A DNA stretch of 18,381 nucleotides from a virus. The stretch is taken from the UHGV virus genome UHGV-1767510; one strand, 5' to 3'. Positions 4,713 to 17,892 of the stretch are shown here, one piece after another (positions within the stretch are counted from its first letter, which is position 1; every line of letters begins with the position of its first letter). A program made the translations under genes and the position numbers. Below the pieces are notes generated by a model. That model was not told the origin of the DNA. It did not search any database and saw only the letters and a program-made list of their open reading frames with translations.

Positions 4713-5096
4713 TCACCTCGCCGTCAGTTGTTTTGATTTCCGGTAGCCTGCCGCGTAAATGGCTACGTTTGGAAGACATACACCAGTTTCTGGTTGCCTA
4801 TGCCCAAACTCATTCGCGTACACAATGGCCGCTCTCTCCAGATTGCGTCTGTATTCTTTCTGTTGCCAGATCACGTCCTGTGCCATGAACTTAATTGGCT
4901 TAGCGTCTTCTATGCGCTCAGGCGTTTCGTGTTTACCTTTAGCCTGAATCTGTGCCAGACTGAGGGTAGGGCGGTGTAATACTTCTGAACTTATTGCTTC
5001 TTCGCGGGCCAGCACGCCGTTAGCTAATGCCTTTGCCTTTAAACGCTCACGACGACGAGAACGTGAATTGCCTTTGAACTGAGTTCTGCGTGTCAT
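4713..5096 (-). CDS. N: Antitermination protein N (P22/Stx-phage type)
   Basis: Arginine-rich N-terminal motif (GNSRSRRRERLKAKA) and C-terminal ...AAGYRKSKQLTAR typical of N-family proteins. First gene downstream of pL/nutL. Confidence 0.8.
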   Translation of the reverse strand: MTRRTQFKGNSRSRRRERLKAKALANGVLAREEAISSEVLHRPTLSLAQIQAKGKHETPERIEDAKPIKFMAQDVIWQQKEYRRNLERAAIVYANEFGHRQPETGVCLPNVAIYAAGYRKSKQLTAR

Positions 5097-5585: not shown

Positions 5586-6518
5586 TTAAAGAACCGATTT
5601 AACAAGATGGTTTTTACGGTACAGACCTATGCGATCATTGTGAATCTCAGTAGTCTCCACTAAAAGAGAAACAATCTGTCCGACCTTGTGTTTTTTTTGT
5701 ATTAAATCTAGCATTTCAATCGGATAGGAAGCCTTTAAATGTTCACCACCAACATCAAGCTCCAGCTTCCCATATTTGGATAGAACGACCAGTTCGCCTG
5801 TAACCGTTTCAGTAATGGGAGGGGATGAAATGGTTGATGTAAGTCTACTCACCAAGTACTTAATTTTATTGGAGTCAATAGTTGCCACCTTGGTGCCATT
5901 ACTAAATGGACCGGTCCAACTTGCATCAAATGTTAAGTTGTGTTTATCGCATTCCTCTACGATTCTCTTAAGGCTTACAGTGGAATTGTATCCAATTTCA
6001 GCGACGTGATTCATGAAGTTGTTGTCGTCATCGCTTAACAACAAATCGAATATGCCTTTTACAGCCTTGCTGGGTACTGTTTCTACTAATTCTGCTATTC
6101 CTGTAGAGAAGGTGACGCCCAATTTTGTAGACCCAGGGGATAAATCAGCCAGCCTGAGGTTTAAGGAGCTTTTCACGTCGTAGGGAACTTTTTTTGAGTC
6201 CTTGCCTGAGGCAATTTTGTGTGTTGCTCTTTGTATTAGCGCTGCAAGATTTGTTGAAATAGCCCCAAGCAGCTCTAAAGGAATAGAGCCAAAGTCAACC
6301 TCAGAGCCTTTCAGCCGCAGCTCAAAAAAATCGATAAGTGGGTGCCGACTATCTTGCTTTAATTTTTCGGCCTTCAAATCGCTCAGATGAGAATCCATGG
6401 AGCGATAAAGAAGCATGTCAGCAAAGGACCTGGTTTTGTTTTGCTTCATTGCATCGACTTCTTTTTGAATGAAATCAATGCGTTTATCGCAATTTTTAAA
6501 CATTGATTTATCATTCAT
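5586..6518 (-). CDS. Unknown 310-aa protein, second gene of the rex-slot cassette (candidate effector or partner)
   Basis: Long ORF translationally coupled to the upstream gene (ATGA overlap at 6515-6518). No motif I can assign (no Walker A, HEPN, HNH or PD-(D/E)xK signatures seen by eye). Confidence 0.7.
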   Translation of the reverse strand: MNDKSMFKNCDKRIDFIQKEVDAMKQNKTRSFADMLLYRSMDSHLSDLKAEKLKQDSRHPLIDFFELRLKGSEVDFGSIPLELLGAISTNLAALIQRATHKIASGKDSKKVPYDVKSSLNLRLADLSPGSTKLGVTFSTGIAELVETVPSKAVKGIFDLLLSDDDNNFMNHVAEIGYNSTVSLKRIVEECDKHNLTFDASWTGPFSNGTKVATIDSNKIKYLVSRLTSTISSPPITETVTGELVVLSKYGKLELDVGGEHLKASYPIEMLDLIQKKHKVGQIVSLLVETTEIHNDRIGLYRKNHLVKSVL

Positions 6519-6994
6519 AAAAAAATCCTCACTAACCCTTTCGGGTTTTCACTGCGATCAAAACCAAACCAACCGCGCCAGTAGCTACGCCAGTACTCAT
6601 AATCATAGTTAGGGTCATCTAAATTCTTCATGAGTAGTAGGACATCAATTTTGTAGTTTTGTTTGATGTAGTTTCGGTCAAGCAAATTATCGACGCGGCC
6701 CCGAAGCATGACAGGTATTGAGTTTATATTGCTATAGTCACATACCAACAAAATATCAATATCATCAGGCTCTGGTTTAGACGTGGTGTATGAACCATCA
6801 ACCCATATTTCTGTAAAACAGCCATATTGAGCAGATAATTCTCGAATAGATTCGAGTAGCTGTATAAAATTACAGTATAGCATGCCTCGCCTGGATGATG
6901 AAGGAAAGCAATCGACACAATACGATTTTAATCCAGCTTCATCCATGTCATGGAACCCTGGCTCAAACAGGGGTGGGTAATTAATTTTATCCAT
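6515..6994 (-). CDS. Putative minimal nucleotidyltransferase-fold protein (159 aa), first gene of the rex-slot cassette
   Basis: Motif WVDGSYTTSKPEPDDIDILLV fits the Pol-beta superfamily NTase signature hG[GS]-x9-Dh[DE]h. RBS AAGG 6 nt before the ATG. Lies immediately downstream of cI, where lambda has rexA. Confidence 0.65.
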   Translation of the reverse strand: MDKINYPPLFEPGFHDMDEAGLKSYCVDCFPSSSRRGMLYCNFIQLLESIRELSAQYGCFTEIWVDGSYTTSKPEPDDIDILLVCDYSNINSIPVMLRGRVDNLLDRNYIKQNYKIDVLLLMKNLDDPNYDYEYWRSYWRGWFGFDRSENPKGLVRIFL

Positions 6995-7143: not shown

Positions 7144-7860
<717 letters not shown>

Positions 7861-7957: not shown

Positions 7958-8158
7958 ATGGAACAACGCATAACCCTGAAAGATTATGCAATACGCTTTG
8001 GGCAAACCAAGACGGCTAAAGATCTCGGCGTATATCAAAGCGCGATTAACAAGGCCATTCATGCAGGCCGAAAGATTTTTTTAACTATAAACGCTGATGG
8101 AAGCGTTTATGCGGAAGAAATAAAGCCCTTCCCAAGTAACAAAAAAACAACTGCATAA
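7958..8158 (+). CDS. cro: Cro repressor
   Basis: 66-aa protein [66 protein letters not shown], essentially lambda Cro; SD AAGGAGG upstream. Confidence 0.9.
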
Positions 8159-8211: not shown

Positions 8212-8295
8212 GCCCCAAGATATCTGACCAACTAAGGCCATATGCGTTTCCACGCATACCTTTCAACTAACTATTCACTATTGGAAAATTAACAA

Positions 8296-8592
8296 ATGAC
8301 ACAAGCAAGTTACAGCAAGCCAACACAGCGAGAAATTGATCGCGCAGAAACAGATTTACTCATCAACCTGTCAACGCTTACCCAGCGCGGTCTGGCAAAG
8401 ATGATTGGCTGTCATGAATCGAAGATAAGCAGAACGGACTGGAGATTTATTGCTTCGGTCTTGTGTGCTTTTGGAATGGCATCAGACATCAGTCCGATTA
8501 GCAGGGCTTTTAAGTATGCGCTTGATGAAATCACAAAGAAAAAATCCCCGGCTGCCACCGAGGATTTTAAGCAAATTGATATGCAATTCTGA
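8296..8592 (+). CDS. cII: CII-like transcriptional activator
   Basis: 98 aa in the cII position after cro/nutR. C-terminal ...[18 protein letters not shown] parallels lambda CII ...KKRPAATERSEQIQMEF; the N-terminal part is divergent. Confidence 0.7.
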
Positions 8593-8624
8593 GGGAATTA
8601 CTGGATCAATCCACAGGAGTAATT

Positions 8625-8771
8625 ATGACAAAACAACTCAGTCCTTACCAGGACAAAATTCACAAACACATACTACGTGATCGCTTCCTGTCCAGCTTCA
8701 AGCAGCCTGGTCGATTCCGGGCTGAGTTGGAAAAAGTGAAGCTGATGCAGAAGGAGAAAGGTCATGAGTAA
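8625..8771 (+). CDS. Small hypothetical protein (48 aa) between cII and O
   Basis: ATG at 8625 preceded by AGGAGT; [48 protein letters not shown]; overlaps the O start by 8 nt. Too short for the ORF track. Confidence 0.35.
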
Positions 8772-9624
8772 TCTTGCAACCGTAACACATTTAAGGCCTT
8801 CACAACGGCCTGTGGAGCGTCGTGTGGCAGAAGTTGAAGATGGTTATACCCGTCTTGCAAATGCCCTGTATGAAGAGCTTATCGGCGCAGATTTAACAAA
8901 AAATCAGAGTAAGGTTGCCCACGCCATATGCCGTAAAACATACGGATACGGTAAAAAGATGGATCGCATCTCTGATAGTCAGTTAGCTCAAATTACCAGG
9001 CTGCCAAGACAGAAGGTAAACAAGGCCAAGAATGAGCTTATCGCGATGAAGGTAATCCTTCGCGAAGGCCAGCAAATCGGGCCTAACAAGAACATCGAGG
9101 AATGGCAAATCGAAGGGTGTCACTACTCTGGTGATAATGTCACTGCATTGGTGACAAAAAGTGTCACCAAAACGGTGACAGCGCTGTCACCAAAACAGGG
9201 ACACACAAAAGAAACTATTACAAAAGAAAAAAGAAATAATAAAAACACTATGTCCGAAAGTGTTCGGACGGAGTGTGAAAAATCATCTGACCGTCACGAA
9301 GAAACCGACAAGGCATTCGAGGAAATATTCTGGTGTGCAGGCATGCGGAAAGCCGGGAAGAAAAACGCAGCTTCGGCATTCAGAACACAGTTCAGGGAAT
9401 GGCGTAAAACTACCAGGGGTACGGCAAGCGAGTTTGCCACGATGCTGGCAGAAGACATCGCATGCAGGAATGGTAAGCAGTTCGGATTCGACAGGTTGTT
9501 ACCATCGAGCTACCTGAACGGTCAACGCTGGAACGACGAAAAGCCAGAAACCATTCAACCACAATCCAAACCATCATCCGCAATCACCGTATCGAAAACT
9601 GGCTACGTGTTTTTCGACAGGTGA
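8764..9624 (+). CDS. O: Replication initiator protein O (lambda O family)
   Basis: 286 aa. N-terminal region resembles lambda O (...[56 protein letters not shown]...). Iteron-type origin lies inside the gene, as in lambda. Confidence 0.85.
9131..9250. repeat. Replication origin (ori-lambda-like): iterons followed by an AT-rich segment
   Basis: Three to four repeated inverted-repeat units of the form tgtcacc-aaaac-ggtgaca (about 9148-9204) inside the O gene, then an A-rich tract (9205-9250). Analogous to the four 19-bp O-binding iterons of lambda. Confidence 0.6.
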
Positions 9625-9627
9625 ACC

Positions 9628-9735
9628 ATGAAATCAAAAATCAAATCGCTACTGGTCGCTGGTTATAACCACGGCTGGTTAAGTATTTCGTTTGTCGATT
9701 TCTGGTTTAAAAATCTCAATCTGAGGGAATCATGA
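9628..9735 (+). CDS. Small hypothetical ORF (35 aa) coupled to the primase-helicase gene
   Basis: ATG at 9628 with AGGTGA upstream; ends in an ATGA overlap with the start of the 968-aa gene. MKSKIKSLLVAGYNHGWLSISFVDFWFKNLNLRES. Could equally be non-coding leader. Confidence 0.2.
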   Translation: MKSKIKSLLVAGYNHGWLSISFVDFWFKNLNLRES

Positions 9736-12638
9736 CGCCAAGTGAACTTAGCGACCTGCTTTGGGCGCAGGTTGACAGGGTGGCTCCGCACCTGTTGCCA
9801 AACGGCAAGAAAGAGGGGCATGAGTGGGTTGCCGGTAACATCAACGGTGACAAGGGAAACAGCCTTAAGGTCAACCTTAGCGGCAAGAAAAAATGGGCTG
9901 ATTTCGCCGAGGGAGACGGCGGTGACATGCTTGATTTGTGGATGGCATGTCGTGGAATTAACCTGCATCAGGCTATGCAGGAAGCGAAAGCATTTCTCGG
10001 TATCAAGGATGACGATCACCATTTCGATGCCAGACGTGAGAAAAAATTCTCCAGACCTGATCGCAAGAAAATCGCCCGCTACGTTACCAGAACAGAATCC
10101 CATCTTGAGTACCTGCAATCGCGTGGCATATCGCCAGAAATCGTAAAGCGCTACGAGGTTGTCAGCGGCAAGGTGTGGAATGGAGAGCGGGAACTGGATG
10201 CTCTGGTGATTCCGTACAAACGCGATGGTGAGTTGTTGCAGGTCAAGCGAATCAGCACTGAGCGCCCGGACGGGAAGAAAGTCATTATGGCAGAAGGTGA
10301 TTGCGAACCTTGCCTGTTCGGATGGCAGGCTCTGGACGCTGGCGTGAGGGCGGTTGTGCTTTGCGAAGGCGAAATTGATTGTATGAGCTATGCGCAATAC
10401 GGCATCTCGGCGTTATCCGTGCCGTTTGGTGGCGGGAAAGGCGCTAAGCAACAGTGGATTGAGTTTGAGTATCACAACCTCGACAGGTTTGAGGAAATAT
10501 TCATCTCGATGGACGTTGATGATGTTGGTCGTGAAGCCGCAAGGGAAATCGCAAGCCGACTCGGTGAACATCGTTGCCGTCTTGTTACTCTGCCGTACAA
10601 AGACATCAACGAATGCCTGATGAACGGTGTTACCGAGGATGAAATCTGGCAGTACATCGGCACGGCATCCTACTTCGATCCTGAAGAACTCTACAGCGCG
10701 CGAGAGTTTTACCAGGACACTATCAACGCTTTCTACGGCAAGCAGCAGTATCTGTTTAATCCACCGTGGGAATCTCTGGCAGATAAATTCCAGTTCCGTG
10801 AGGCAGAGTTGACGCTGGTCAATGGTGTGAACGGTCACGGAAAAGCCTGTCCACTTGATGAACCAATTCTGCTCGCTAATGGTGAATGGACTACTCACGG
10901 GGATGTAAAAATTGGCGATCAGGTGGCATCAGTAGACGGCAATCCGTCAACTGTCACCGGGATATTCCCGCAGGGTGTTAGAGATGTTTACCGAGTCACA
11001 TTTGAAGATGGTCGTTATGTTGATTGCGCAGGCGATCACCTATGGGAGGTCACTAGTCGTGGATTCACGAAAGGCGAGAAGCGCCGCGTGATAGACACCT
11101 TCGAGCTGAAACGGTTGAGTGAAACGAAGAGGCACAAAAATGGCGTCAGGATACCCGAAATAACTGGTGACTTTGGCGACCACTCAGAGCCATTAGCATG
11201 GGTTATCGGCTCCCTTCTCGGGGATGGTAGTCTTAGCAATGGGAGCGTGAAGTTTTCAAACGTCGAGCCATACATGATCGAGCGTATGAAGGCTGAACTG
11301 CCTGATTACAACTTTTCTGGAGATGGTAAGGACTGGCTGATATCAACGGCGCGTGGTCAGGTAAATCCACTCATGGAGACCCTGCGAGTTTATGGACTAA
11401 TGGGGTGCACAGCAAAAAACAAATTCATCCCTCGTGTGTTTTTTTCCGCAAACAAATCAACGCGTATAGGAATGCTGTGTGGTCTGCTTGAAACGGATGG
11501 TTATGTCGAGAAGGATGGAACGCTTGTTTTTTCCTCAGCAAGTGAAGAACTGCGTAATGGGGTTGTTCAACTGGTTAACTCACTCGGCGGTTCATGCCGG
11601 ACGCGAGTTAAAACTGGCGTGACATACACATACAAGGGCGATAAGCGGCATGGGATGGATTCATATGAGGCAAGGATACGACTGACAAGGGAAATCAGGG
11701 AGGCCATCCGTTCACCACGACTCAATGGCAGATTAACTGCGCATCGATTCGAGGGGTGTGGGGTATTCGTCAGGAATGTTGAAAAAATCGGCAATGCAGA
11801 ATGCTTGTGTATCATGGTCGATCACCCTCGCCACCTGTATGTAACCAGAGGATATGTGGCAACGCATAACACCGAGGTTGTCGGGCATATGGCGCTTGAG
11901 GCAATGCGTCAGGGTGTGAAGACGTGCATCGCGTCACTTGAGCTGAAGCCTGGTATTCTCCTTAAGCGCCTTACCCGTCAGGCGACGTGCTGCAAGATGC
12001 CGCCAGTGCTGGAAATTGACTCTGCATTTAAATTTTATGACGAAAGACTTTGGGTGTTTGGCCTGACCGGAACGGCGAAAGCCGACAGGCTGATCGAAAT
12101 ATTCGACTACGCTCGCCGCCGATACGGGATCCAGTTATTCATCATCGACAGCCTGATGAAATGTGGCATAGGCGACGATGACTATAACGGGCAGAAGGCG
12201 TTTGTTGACTCGATTTGCGACTTCAAAAACAAAACAAACTCCCACGTCATTCTCGTTACTCACTCGCGAAAAGGAGACAGCGAAGAAAAACCAACCGGGA
12301 AAATGGACGTAAAAGGCTCTGGAGCGATAACAGACCTGACAGACAACCTTTTCATCATCTGGCGTAACAAGGCTCGCGAGAGAGCGTTACAGAGAGTTCA
12401 GAGTGGTGAAAAGATGTCAGAGAAGGACGAACAGCTACTGGCATCTCCGGCATCTGTTTTGATGCTTGAAAAACAACGTAACGGCGAAGGTTGGGAAGGT
12501 GGTGTCCCGTTGTTCCTTGACGAGCAATCGCACCAGTTCCTGCAACTTGAATCAGGATCGCCATATAGCTACATCGCCAATATGCCGAAATCGGAATATG
12601 ACGAGGCGTGGCGACAGGAAAACGTGACGGAGTATTAA
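9732..12638 (+). CDS. Bifunctional primase-helicase (Toprim primase domain + DnaB/gp4-like helicase domain) interrupted by an intein
   Basis: 968 aa. N-terminal Toprim-like motif (VVLCEGEIDCMSY). Walker A GVNGHGK[A]-T split by the insert; Walker B-like LFIIDSL and VILVTHSRKG downstream. Occupies the slot of lambda P (helicase loader), following O. Confidence 0.85.
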   Translation: MTPSELSDLLWAQVDRVAPHLLPNGKKEGHEWVAGNINGDKGNSLKVNLSGKKKWADFAEGDGGDMLDLWMACRGINLHQAMQEAKAFLGIKDDDHHFDARREKKFSRPDRKKIARYVTRTESHLEYLQSRGISPEIVKRYEVVSGKVWNGERELDALVIPYKRDGELLQVKRISTERPDGKKVIMAEGDCEPCLFGWQALDAGVRAVVLCEGEIDCMSYAQYGISALSVPFGGGKGAKQQWIEFEYHNLDRFEEIFISMDVDDVGREAAREIASRLGEHRCRLVTLPYKDINECLMNGVTEDEIWQYIGTASYFDPEELYSAREFYQDTINAFYGKQQYLFNPPWESLADKFQFREAELTLVNGVNGHGKACPLDEPILLANGEWTTHGDVKIGDQVASVDGNPSTVTGIFPQGVRDVYRVTFEDGRYVDCAGDHLWEVTSRGFTKGEKRRVIDTFELKRLSETKRHKNGVRIPEITGDFGDHSEPLAWVIGSLLGDGSLSNGSVKFSNVEPYMIERMKAELPDYNFSGDGKDWLISTARGQVNPLMETLRVYGLMGCTAKNKFIPRVFFSANKSTRIGMLCGLLETDGYVEKDGTLVFSSASEELRNGVVQLVNSLGGSCRTRVKTGVTYTYKGDKRHGMDSYEARIRLTREIREAIRSPRLNGRLTAHRFEGCGVFVRNVEKIGNAECLCIMVDHPRHLYVTRGYVATHNTEVVGHMALEAMRQGVKTCIASLELKPGILLKRLTRQATCCKMPPVLEIDSAFKFYDERLWVFGLTGTAKADRLIEIFDYARRRYGIQLFIIDSLMKCGIGDDDYNGQKAFVDSICDFKNKTNSHVILVTHSRKGDSEEKPTGKMDVKGSGAITDLTDNLFIIWRNKARERALQRVQSGEKMSEKDEQLLASPASVLMLEKQRNGEGWEGGVPLFLDEQSHQFLQLESGSPYSYIANMPKSEYDEAWRQENVTEY
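10848..11870 (+). mobile_element. Intein with LAGLIDADG homing-endonuclease domain, inserted in the helicase P-loop
   Basis: In-frame 341-aa insert starting CPLDEPILLANGEW... and ending ...YVATHN followed by Thr (+1 nucleophile). Two LAGLIDADG-like motifs (VIGSLLGDGSL; LCGLLETDGYV). Removing it restores a P-loop. The N-terminal boundary could be one residue earlier (Ala, 10845), which would give a perfect GVNGHGKT Walker A. Confidence 0.7.
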
Positions 12639-12720
12639 ATGACAATCTACATCACTGAGCTAATAGCAGGGTTATCGTTACTAATGGTTCTTACTGTATA
12701 TATTATTAAGTATATTCTTT

Positions 12721-13332
12721 ATGCGAATAAAAAAACCAATTGATCACGATGAGCTTCTGTCAACATTATCATATGACTCAGAAACAGGAATATTTAAATG
12801 GCTAAAAACAAATTCAGTAGTAAGAGTAAAAGGTAGTATTGCTGGAGGTGTTAGTGGTGGTTATATATGCATTAGCATAAATAATGTTTTGTATTATGCG
12901 CATAGGCTTGCTTGGTTCTATGTATACAAAAAATGGCCTCCTAAGTTTATTGATCATGTAAATGGGAACAGACTTGACAATAGGATTTCAAATCTAAGAC
13001 TGGCAACAGAGGAGCAGAATGCAAGAAACATTGTAGGTAATAGGTTAAACACATCCGGTGCGATTGGAGTGTCTTGGGATAAGACAACTGGCAGGTGGAA
13101 GTCTTATGTTGGTTATAAAAATAAGACAATATCGTTAGGGTATTTCGATAGCAAAGAAGATGCAGCATTCATAGCAGCACTAGCAAGAAAGAAACTATAT
13201 GGAACTTATGCGAGTAAAGCACTTAATTGCGAGCATGAGCTTTTATCTCAATTTAATAATGATGAGGATAAACTTGCGGAATATCTTAAGGAAAAATCTA
13301 AAAGGACTCGAAAGCGTGTTAAAAAAAGATAA
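12721..13332 (+). CDS. Free-standing HNH homing endonuclease with AP2-like DNA-binding domain
   Basis: HNH motif ...YYAHRLAWFYVYKKWPPKFIDHVNGNRLDNRISNLRLATEEQNARN, plus AP2-like GVSWDKTTGRWKSYVGYKNKTISLGYFDSKEDAA. The gene and its flanks are visibly AT-rich compared with neighbours (not computed). Confidence 0.8.
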   Translation: MRIKKPIDHDELLSTLSYDSETGIFKWLKTNSVVRVKGSIAGGVSGGYICISINNVLYYAHRLAWFYVYKKWPPKFIDHVNGNRLDNRISNLRLATEEQNARNIVGNRLNTSGAIGVSWDKTTGRWKSYVGYKNKTISLGYFDSKEDAAFIAALARKKLYGTYASKALNCEHELLSQFNNDEDKLAEYLKEKSKRTRKRVKKR

Positions 13333-13364
13333 AGGCCTGCTGGTAATCGCAGGCCTTTTTATTT
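13333..13364 (+). terminator. Intrinsic terminator after the HNH gene
   Basis: Hairpin aggcctgc-tggtaatc-gcaggcct followed by TTTTTATTT. Confidence 0.6.
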
Positions 13365-13379
13365 GGGGGAGGGTAAATT

Positions 13380-16734: not shown

Positions 16735-17383
16735 TGGCAGCAAATACCGAAATATTTGGGTAGTTGGCGATCTGCACGGATGCTACACGAACCTGATGAA
16801 AAAACTGGAGACGATAGGATTCGACACCAAAAAAGACCTGCTTATCTCGGTTGGCGATTTGGTCGATCGCGGTACAGAGAACGTCGAATGCCTGGAATTA
16901 ATCACATTCCCCTGGTTCAGAGCTGTACGTGGAAACCATGAGCAAATGATGATTGATGGCTTATCAGAGCGCGGAAACGTCAATCACTGGATGCTTAATG
17001 GCGGTGGCTGGTTCTTTAATCTCGATTACGACAAAGAAATTCTGGCTAAAGCTCTTGCCCATAAAGCAGATGAACTTCCGTTAATCATCGAACTGGTGAG
17101 CAAAGATAAAAAATATGTCATCTGCCACGCCGATTATCCTTGTGACGAATACGAGTTTGGAAAGCCAGTTGATCATCAGCAGGTAATCTGGAACCGAGAA
17201 CGAATCAGCAACTCACAAGACGGGATCGTGAAAGAAATTAAAGGCGCGGACACGTTCATCTTTGGTCATACGCCAGCAGTGAAACCGCTCAAATTTGCCA
17301 ACCAGATGTATATCGATACCGGCGCAGTGTTCTGCGGAAAGCTCACATTGATTCAGGTACAGGGAGAAGGCGCGTGGGCATAA
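16712..17383 (+). CDS. ninI: Serine/threonine protein phosphatase (lambda PPase / NinI family)
   Basis: Metallophosphatase motifs GDLHG, GDLVDRG and GNHE. Start [25 protein letters not shown]... at 16712, inside the longer track ORF. Confidence 0.85.
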
Positions 17384-17892
17384 GAGAACTAAACCTCACC
17401 AAAGAACAGCATGAGTGGCTGAATGGCTGGCTTGAACTGTGGGGCGCATGGGTTTATTCAGGTCGTCTGGAAAAGCGCATGAGCAGCGTAATAGCGAAGT
17501 TCATGGAGAGCGTAGAGCCGGGAAGAGTTATGACAAGGCCAATGTGTAATGATGATGATGGAATGTTGATTTCTCAGGTCGTCGATTCCGTCATGTACAT
17601 TGACAAGAAAGCCTTTGGCATCCTCCTCAGCTACTACGCTCATGGTTCATCTAAGCGAGCAATTGCATCCTACTATCACGCGACTGCAAAGCCACGCAAG
17701 ATGTGTGGACGTGGTGGCGAGGGATGGAGAAAACCTTCAATGGCAACCTGTAGAAACGAAATTGACGACATCCTGAAAGCGTCGTTATTTGTTTTGTACC
17801 AGCCAATGCAAAATGCTTTCAAAATGCGTAAACGTGTTGAGAAAGTTAAGCATGTTGCTGTTAAAAGCCTTGACATGCAATTATCTATTTAG
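17374..17892 (+). CDS. Q: Late-gene antiterminator Q-like protein (non-lambda Q type)
   Basis: 172 aa. GTG start with AGGGAGAAGG RBS. Positioned after ninI and directly upstream of a pR'-like promoter, terminator and holin; contains Cys/His residues. The call rests on position, not on recognised sequence identity. Confidence 0.5.

Follow-up and report, generated by a model that had tools for sequence, protein, structure and literature searches.

A lambda-type O initiator paired with a predicted intein-bearing primase-helicase of the T7 gp4/Twinkle type in a probable Eru5-type replication module

Which protein can take the place of P next to a lambda-type O initiator, and how would a lambdoid prophage start its replication with such a partner? 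This question is raised by a stretch of 18,381 nucleotides from the viral genome UHGV-1767510 (hereafter, the window), in which an O-type replication initiator gene (8764-9624, 286 aa) is followed by a 35-aa open reading frame (ORF) of the ES18 gp60 family (9628-9735) and by a gene that starts with ATG and encodes a primase-helicase precursor of 968 aa with an intein, or 626 aa once spliced (9732-12638); these and all other coding features lie on the plus strand unless stated otherwise. An earlier interpretation of the same letters, made without database searches (the sequence-only reading), had held that the gene after O is not P, in agreement with the T7 gp4-type product described below and with the absence of any lambda P or DnaC homologue from the window. 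The most probable explanation is that the locus forms the replication module in the early-right region of a lambdoid prophage and belongs to the ES18/phi24B ('Eru5') type, in which O would recruit a phage-encoded primase-helicase.

The ORF 9732-12638 had been described as a Toprim primase fused to a DnaB/gp4-like helicase, and both its coordinates, which are exact, and this domain assignment are borne out by Pfam, PHROGs, an alignment with T7 gp4 and the predicted fold. Its N-extein (aa 1-371; 9732-10844) comprises a zinc-ribbon-like domain, the RNA-polymerase/Toprim domain of the primase, a linker and the start of the Walker A motif. Toprim_2 is matched at aa 209-296 (E-value of 7.8e-12; 45.8 bits against a Pfam cut-off of 22.1), the PHROGs families 'DNA primase' and 'DNA primase/helicase' are matched with E-values of 6e-192 and 6e-164, respectively, and a weak DnaG match covers aa 26-143 (NCBIfam). 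Three Toprim motifs are found in this part of the protein, namely CEGEID (10362-10388), DVDD (10506-10529) and KDINE (10590-10616), and residues E212, D261, D263 and D291 fall on the conserved acidic positions of the T7 gp4 Toprim domain, which we take to be E157, D207, D209 and D237. Column statistics for the family were drawn from 126 relatives, with a mutual identity of at most about 50%, plus the window sequence; E212, E214, D216, D261, D263 and D291 are each kept in at least 113 of these 127 sequences.

The helicase half is split by the intein. The first part of Walker A, GVNGHGK (10824-10844), closes the N-extein, and the remaining SF4 helicase domain constitutes the C-extein (aa 714-968; 11871-12638), where Thr714 completes Walker A and where Walker B (LFIIDSL, 12135-12155), motif H3 (LVTHSRK, 12252-12272) and motif H4 (DVKGSGAITDLTDN, 12303-12347) are located. 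GVNGHGKT, LFIIDSL, VTHSRK and DVKGSG, which represent Walker A, Walker B, H3 and H4, respectively, all align with T7 gp4. When the protein is spliced in silico, the helicase domain passes the Pfam cut-offs of DnaB_C (27.4 bits; cut-off 27) and AAA_25 (30.1 bits; cut-off 27), and a search of the PDB sequences retrieves T7 gp4 (5ikn, E-value of 2.7e-23) as well as Twinkle, with alignments that span the Toprim part and the helicase part alike. The spliced protein was also modelled with AlphaFold, and the model, for which an alignment of 111 diverse family members served as input, reaches a predicted local distance difference test (pLDDT) score of 92.4 and a predicted template modelling score of 0.77, with pLDDT values above 90 throughout the primase region; an earlier run on 20 close homologues gave a pLDDT of 52.7 and was kept out of the fold search. 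In the comparison of the model with the PDB by Foldseek, the best match is T7 gp4 (5ikn_J; E-value of 1.4e-26, 501 columns, template modelling score of 0.76 on the target), followed by Twinkle (7t8c and 8e2l), and DnaB and Aquifex DnaG are matched too. The assignment of the product as a Toprim primase plus SF4 helicase of the T7 gp4/Twinkle type is thus supported by sequence and model, from which its activities are predicted.

The same searches bear on whether the C-terminal ATPase could instead be a DnaC- or P-like helicase loader, as a match of aa 359-476 to PHROG 50, 'DnaC-like helicase loader' (E-value of 9.8e-12), would have it. This match and a 'terminase large subunit' match, which together fall within aa 351-731, were rejected as intein-driven because they are confined to the P-loop and the intein (for PHROG 50, to the first 100 intein residues); the former match reflects members of PHROG 50 that themselves bear an intein. 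The spliced domain, on the other hand, matches DnaB_C, the T7 gp4 helicase, Twinkle and DnaB by both sequence and fold and carries all the helicase motifs, and the best-scoring structural matches include no AAA+ loader; a loader at this place is extremely improbable. The domain search that had been suggested along with the sequence-only reading accordingly returns a primase-type N-terminal region, with Toprim_2 and its acidic residues kept, and a C-terminal domain that is a helicase rather than a loader.

Several points weigh against an active primase-helicase. In a hand alignment, the positions of the T7 zinc ligands C17, C20, C36 and C39 are occupied by A34, I37, A56 and A59 in the window and, across the 126 relatives, Cys is a minority residue at two ligand positions and is not one of the most frequent residues at the remaining two, so that a consistent set of four Cys is not seen. 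Within aa 1-200, Pfam gives no match to a primase zinc-finger, and a search of this segment against the PDB sequences returned nothing useful. T7 primase recognises its template through its N-terminal zinc finger, and priming by a Cys-less protein may therefore differ or be weak. In the helicase half, Lys861 (DVKGSG, compared with DLRGSG in T7) stands at the position of the T7 arginine finger, presumably R522, and Lys is the family consensus there. Moreover, frameshifted or truncated intein copies are present in some relatives, so not every copy of the module is functional, and no biochemical experiment on this module or family was found in the searchable literature.

The loss of all four zinc ligands in the window, the lack of conserved Cys at these positions in the family and the missing zinc-finger match would all fit a protein in which the helicase is functional and the primase half is a non-catalytic, Twinkle-like remnant, so that the module would replace DnaB and P and depend on host DnaG. 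Human Twinkle shares this architecture and has no primase activity, which counts in the same direction. A further precedent is P22 gp12, a helicase-only replacement of P in a lambdoid phage that works with host DnaG according to Wickner 1984, as cited in PMC8022706. Nevertheless, the Toprim metal-binding residues match those of T7 gp4 and are retained at the frequency given above (at least 113 of 127 sequences), and the N-terminal domain is kept in the model as a Cys-less beta-ribbon plus helices with pLDDT values above 90. Its Cys-less motif, G-x-S-L-K...W-x-D-F-A...G-D-x-x-D-L-W (9825-9941), is strongly conserved (G35, G39, G42, S44, W55, D57, G64 and D65), which argues for retained function, and the modelled primase region superposes on the primase folds of T7 gp4 and DnaG. 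Loss of catalysis in the primase half is, in view of this conservation, an unlikely explanation, and a protein that combines both predicted activities is preferred.

The sequence-only reading had also noticed an intein in the helicase, and this element can be delimited to precursor aa 372-713 (10845-11870; 342 aa) by means of intein-less orthologues. In mEp043 and in ES18 gp61 (626 aa), which are 99% and 94% identical, respectively, the protein reads GVNGHGK-TEVVGH and has 342 residues fewer, which places the intein between Lys371 and Thr714, where it splits Walker A as GVNGHGK|T; the intein-less target sequence around the insertion site is ...GGTCACGGAAAA|ACGGAGGTTGTC.... A start at Cys373, as in a class 1 intein, was considered and ruled out, since it would leave an extra Ala in Walker A and the intein-less orthologues join Lys371 straight to Thr714. 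The residues expected to take part in splicing are Ala372 (position 1), His436 and Trp438 (block B), Cys693 (F:4), Thr711-His712-Asn713 (block G) and Thr714 (+1). Among PDB entries, the mycobacterial DnaB class 3 inteins 6rix, 6riy and 6bs8 are the best matches, and His65, Trp67, Cys124 and Thr143 of 6rix align with His65, Trp67, Cys322 and Thr340 of the intein (436, 438, 693 and 711 of the precursor), the C-terminal His341-Asn342 of the intein being precursor residues 712-713. The WCT triplet of class 3 inteins consists of Trp B:12, Cys F:4 and Thr G:5 (PMC2807308), and the roles of the residues have been described for 6rix (PMC7664689) and for class 3 inteins (PMC2807308, PMC6195587). According to this signature, the intein belongs to class 3, and splicing is predicted; a Pfam Hint match to the precursor stays below the family cut-off.

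The intein also contains a LAGLIDADG homing-endonuclease domain (11202-11504), identified by LAGLIDADG_3 (E-value of 2e-7; 31.6 bits against a Pfam cut-off of 22.5), by a weak Hom_end match and, in the PDB sequence search, by matches to PI-SceI and PI-PkoII. Its two LAGLIDADG motifs, VIGSLLGDGS (11202-11231) and LCGLLETDGY (11475-11504), are intact and each has its catalytic acidic residue, from which DNA cleavage is predicted. At the insertion site, the first codon of the C-extein (11871-11873) reads ACC in the two alleles with an intein that were compared, whereas each of the five intein-less alleles compared (IMG/VR loci L001, L003, L005, L008 and L012) has ACG; such a synonymous change is expected beside a homing site and may have to do with recognition by the endonuclease or with immunity to it. 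Inteins are found in more distant members of the family as well. Among relatives with 36-43% identity, some (P0131, P0158, P0169 and P0257) carry inteins of the Ala-1/WCT type at the same P-loop site (GHGK|AL..PTHN|S/T), and others (P0153, P0188, P0205 and P0209) carry an intein of about 300 aa of the Cys-1...Asn|Cys type inside the Toprim motif EGE|CDA.

Could the intein-bearing allele of the window be a dead gene in a decaying prophage, with no splicing and no active helicase? Intein-bearing alleles are a minority: among the 621 complete E. coli genomes with the module, 79 have the intein, and in IMG/VR it is present in 17 loci compared with 587 for the N-extein. Several IMG/VR copies are damaged: L096, L098 and L099 have one to three gaps in the intein-bearing gene and L097 is truncated at intein aa 241, a sign that these genes may be in decay; the partial primase inteins known from Shigella flexneri 2a prophages are a comparable case (PMC2807308). 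The window ORF, however, is open over all of its 968 codons, all class 3 splicing residues are present and both LAGLIDADG motifs are intact. Relative to the allele of the Stx phages, 39 of the 1026 intein nucleotides differ, and the codon differences are 31 synonymous and 6 non-synonymous, which indicates that the intein is under purifying selection; its DNA has diverged by 3.8%, compared with 0.3-1.4% for the exteins. In addition, the genome records of phi24B and Min27 hold the same intein-containing gene, and in phi24B, Min27 and phiXuzhou21, which are infective phages, it is the sole primase-helicase gene. A dead allele is, on this evidence, very unlikely.

An additional feature of the intein is the segment ECLCIMVD (aa 690-697; 11799-11822), in which Cys691 lies two residues before the catalytic Cys693 and thus forms a C-L-C motif. 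In the four distant P-loop inteins examined, one Cys is found at block F (VRCIQVD or VKCIQVD where the excerpt reaches the motif). Because Cys693 is part of this motif and because splicing is needed to complete the P-loop, it is conceivable, although doubtful, that the class 3 intein acts as a redox-gated switch on prophage replication. By analogy, oxidants such as H2O2, which also induces Stx prophages, could then reversibly trap the precursor and delay replication. There is a precedent for redox trapping of the precursor in M. smegmatis, whose class 3 DnaBi1 intein is inserted at the same P-loop site and behaves in this way (PMC6195587).

Regarding the initiator, the sequence-only reading had called both O and its iteron origin lambda-like, a description that holds for the layout, the A-rich tract and the N-terminal half of O, but neither for the iteron sequence nor for the C-terminal half of O. 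The N-terminal origin-binding domain (aa 1-156) contains Phage_rep_O (PF04492) at aa 20-114 (E-value of 1.1e-37; 128.8 bits against a Pfam cut-off of 28.7) and scores 105.4 bits with phage_O_Nterm (TIGR01610; NCBIfam cut-off 45.5). In BLASTP, the 49% identity with lambda O is limited to aa 1-157; aa 157-286, which form the C-terminal, module-specific domain (9232-9624), show no significant similarity to the C-terminal half of lambda O and have no Pfam match at E-values up to 10, and O as a whole found nothing useful among the PDB sequences. Four iterons lie inside the O gene (9118-9137, 9138-9157, 9162-9180 and 9185-9203), each of them palindromic (TGTCAC-N7-GGTGACA), as established by a repeat search and by direct reading. 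Lambda also has four iterons, at the equivalent place but of another sequence (TCCCTCAAAACGAGGGA, compared with TGTCACCAAAACGGTGACA in the window). The window iterons are followed by an A-rich tract, acacaaaagaaactattacaaaagaaaaaagaaataataaaaac (9204-9247), which is nearly identical to that of lambda ori and is presumed to be the part of the origin that unwinds, and by a 14-nucleotide inverted repeat (9245-9258 and 9263-9276), the tract and the repeat together spanning 9204-9276. The origin is therefore lambda-like in layout and not in iteron sequence. Matches to Stx phages start abruptly at position 9240, at the end of the A-rich tract, which places the mosaic junction with Stx-phage-like sequence at about this position.

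The small ORF between O and the primase-helicase, which the sequence-only reading had proposed as possibly coupled, has proved to be a conserved gene. Its TGA stop overlaps the ATG of the primase-helicase as ATGA, it matches PHROG 21848 with an E-value of 4.4e-26 and the ES18 annotation lists it as gp60. The gene also exists as a second allele with 71% identity, which differs by a 3-nucleotide indel that keeps the frame and by changes that are mainly synonymous or conservative, and prophages of Pantoea and Xenorhabdus encode a counterpart at the same position with 57-66% identity. Judging by this conservation and the overlap, the 35-aa ORF is a real gene, with predicted translational coupling to the primase-helicase.

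The way in which the parts of the module have diverged suggests a functional link among them. When 80 IMG/VR loci that share nearly the same primase-helicase were compared, 79 had an O C-terminal domain that is at least 94% identical (the remaining locus has no upstream sequence), and the O N-terminal domain in the same loci is of at least three types: that of the window and mEp043, that of ES18 and that of the Stx phages, the last one without detectable similarity. Prophages of Pantoea and Xenorhabdus keep the order cI-cro-cII-O-35-aa ORF-primase-helicase-nin, and in comparison with the window the O C-terminal domain, the 35-aa ORF and the primase-helicase are, respectively, 66%, 66% and 73-80% identical in the former and 48%, 57% and 67-75% in the latter; the O N-terminal domain, at 40-46%, is out of step with the rest of the module. 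This co-divergence of the three elements, while the O N-terminal domain is swapped, supports the recruitment of the primase-helicase by O. In lambda, the C-terminal half of O contacts P. A corresponding contact between the C-terminal half of O and the primase-helicase is suggested by the pattern of co-divergence, and the former would then be the docking domain of the latter. As an idea, a primase-helicase that lacks zinc could be loaded by a system of its own, made up of the O C-terminal domain and the 35-aa peptide.

Taken together, these features outline how the module could operate. Upon transcription from pR, the N-terminal domain of O would bind the four iterons that lie within the O gene, and the A-rich tract beside them would open. 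The C-terminal domain of O would then recruit the phage protein of the T7 gp4/Twinkle type instead of a P-DnaB complex, possibly with the help of the co-translated 35-aa peptide, and this protein would supply both fork unwinding and lagging-strand priming. A ring helicase of the SF4 type fused to a Toprim primase implies that unwinding and priming could be provided by the phage and that no dedicated loader would be needed. The helicase would be made as an inactive precursor, because the 342-aa intein splits Walker A, and the intein would have to splice itself out; given the Ala start and the WCT signature, the class 3 route is expected, in which Cys693 attacks the N-terminal junction. The LAGLIDADG endonuclease domain, in turn, would explain the spread of the intein to intein-less alleles. 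In this scheme, we infer the primase and helicase activities, the splicing, the contact between O and the helicase and the independence from host DnaB, DnaC and DnaG. Phages with the module would be expected to do without the P-DnaB-chaperone pathway of lambda, and the response of their replication to the physiology of the host may differ as a result; for Stx phages, such an altered response would bear on toxin gene dosage.

The pairing of O with a primase-helicase had been proposed as a mosaic module worth documenting. Its mosaic nature stands, as seen in the swap of the O N-terminal half, but the module is already known, both from GenBank annotation and from comparative-genomics papers since the mid-2000s, and it is common. 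The GenBank record of ES18 (AY736146), cited to Casjens et al. 2005, lists gp59 as similar to lambda gpO, with a 'rep_origin similar to lambda ori', followed by gp60 and by gp61, 'putative primase/helicase; similar to phage T7 gene 4', and the same region is noted in the epsilon34 paper. In the 968-aa 'P' protein of phi24B, Smith et al. 2012 recognised TOPRIM and GP4d helicase domains together with an intein (residues 372-702), and they speculated that the intein regulates this protein; Tori et al. 2010 (PMC2807308) reported partial 'ShP-Sfv-2a Primase' inteins, without an N-terminal nucleophile, in Shigella prophages. Fagerlund et al. 2022 typed the region as 'Eru5', with Stx2a_F403 (AP012529) as representative. 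Window positions 9240-12642, which run from the C-terminal half of O through the 35-aa ORF to the intein-containing primase-helicase gene, are 97% identical to AP012529, and positions 8764-9239, with the O N-terminal half and the iterons, are unmatched. The types Eru1-3 of Llarena et al. 2021 were considered too and do not correspond to the module, whereas Eru5 does over positions 9240-12642.

The module is present in 621 complete E. coli genomes, about 11% (roughly one in nine). The combination of a mEp043-type O N-terminal half, the intein-bearing gene and the HNH cassette described below was not found in the phage and E. coli collections that were searched; its nearest match, IMG/VR locus L085, is 98.5% identical over window positions 8265-12670 and encodes an identical intein protein. 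Two exact-pattern scans of one-genome-per-species contigs for the junction between N-extein and intein gave no hit. The gene combination of the window is ordinary lambdoid mosaicism, and the window is best regarded as a clean, intact example of the module, with little weight as a discovery.

The surroundings of the module are those of a lambdoid prophage immunity and replication region, as deduced from ORF calls, Pfam and PHROGs. The left arm, on the minus strand, contains genes for abc2, a single-stranded DNA-binding protein (SSB) and a Sak4-type annealase, N (4713-5096), two genes in the position of lambda rexAB (5586-6994) and cI (7144-7857), while cro (7958-8158) and cII (8296-8592) precede the module on the plus strand and Q (17374-17892) lies 3' of the nin genes; no stx gene is found in the window. 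Between cII and O there is a 58-aa ORF (8592-8767; PHROG 1913), which occupies the same place in ES18 (gp58) and mEp043 and whose PHROG label 'tail protein' is almost certainly a mis-annotation that has passed into the RefSeq records of these phages. The two genes located between N and cI overlap (5586-6518, 310 aa, and 6515-6994, 159 aa, both on the minus strand) and match the PADLOC candidate defence system PDC-M63 (E-values of 7.5e-45 for component B and 1.8e-41 for component A). Their PHROG families have no assigned function, and on the basis of these matches the pair is probably a prophage-encoded anti-phage system.

Directly 3' of the primase-helicase stop lies a low-GC HNH-AP2 homing-endonuclease cassette (12639-13371), after which the nin genes follow. 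It has a G+C content (GC) of 35%, ends in a terminator-like hairpin (13331-13358) and contains an HNH endonuclease gene (12721-13332) that matches Pfam HNH_3, AP2 below threshold and PHROG 99. The cassette is about 98% identical behind unrelated replication genes in HK022 (P / DnaB-like), Stx2a_WGPS4 (DnaB analogue) and PA28 (Ren), which gives it the appearance of a free-standing mobile endonuclease whose target is the point where the replication region meets the nin region; it is a separate selfish element outside the replication machinery. At its left end, a putative gene for a strongly hydrophobic 34-aa product, MTIYITELIAGLSLLMVLTVYIIKYILYANKKTN (12639-12743), starts at a TAAATG overlap with the primase-helicase stop and runs into the start of the HNH gene, and it has no PHROG match. 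Another HNH endonuclease gene, of 164 aa, is inserted between the 35-aa ORF and the primase-helicase in IMG/VR loci L070 (3510-4004) and L072. With inserts at three distinct sites (the intein, the downstream cassette and the L070/L072 site), the module is a repeated target of homing-type endonucleases.

The sequence-only reading had called for a comparison with the replication modules of other lambdoid phages, and the same module is found in ES18, epsilon34, g341c, mEp043 and Sf101 and in Stx phages. In the first five, the order is the same, with an O-like gene with an internal ori, the 35-aa ORF and the primase-helicase; the exteins are from 94% (ES18) to 99% (mEp043) identical to those of the window and the O C-terminal domain is 96-99% identical. 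The O proteins of mEp043 and Sf101 are of the window type over their full length, whereas the N-terminal domain of ES18 O is of another type, 48% identical. These phages differ from the window in that the intein is missing, as is the HNH cassette behind the gene. In phi24B (vB_EcoP_24B), Min27, Stx2a_F403 and phiXuzhou21, by contrast, the 'P' protein has the same 968 aa, is 99% identical and carries the intein at the same residue 372. In this second group, the O C-terminal domain is 95% identical and the 35-aa ORF allele is 71% identical to their window counterparts, while the O N-terminal domain is of another type, with no tblastn match to the window and described in the literature as HTH_36.

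With T7 gp4 and Twinkle, the window protein shares the order of a zinc-ribbon-type domain, an RNA-polymerase/Toprim domain, a linker and an SF4 RecA-type helicase, although the sequence identity is only about 20% and the window protein has lost the four zinc Cys and has Lys in place of the arginine finger. The metazoan Twinkle proteins also lack the four zinc-binding Cys. Unlike T7, the window places the protein in a temperate lambdoid context with an O-type initiator; T7 replication initiates through transcription by RNA polymerase.

Within the known inteins, the closest parallels are those of the DnaB of mycobacteriophage Bethlehem and of the M. smegmatis and M. chimaera DnaBi1 (6bs8, 6rix), which occupy the same P-loop site, between the Lys and the Ser/Thr of Walker A, and have the same class 3 residues (Ala 1, His and Trp of block B, Cys F:4, Thr-His-Asn of block G and Ser/Thr +1). 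The likeness is confined to the splicing blocks (E-value of 5e-10), and the window intein has kept its LAGLIDADG endonuclease domain in full, unlike Msm DnaBi1, which is a mini-intein (PMC6195587). In the window intein, Val replaces Cys48, the redox partner in Msm DnaBi1, and the second Cys of the C-L-C motif is a further difference.

Finally, the module occupies the same place in the pR operon, after cII, as lambda O/P and P22 gene 18/gene 12, and shares with them the iterons and A-rich tract inside the initiator gene. The lambda and P22 initiators are also two-domain proteins, with a swappable origin-binding half and a partner-specific half, and P22 provides the precedent for a phage-encoded helicase in place of P. 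The window differs from lambda in its iteron sequence and in its O C-terminal domain, which are unrelated to those of lambda, and from both phages in the partner of its initiator: lambda P is a loader and P22 gp12 a DnaB-type helicase, whereas the partner in the window is a fused primase-helicase.

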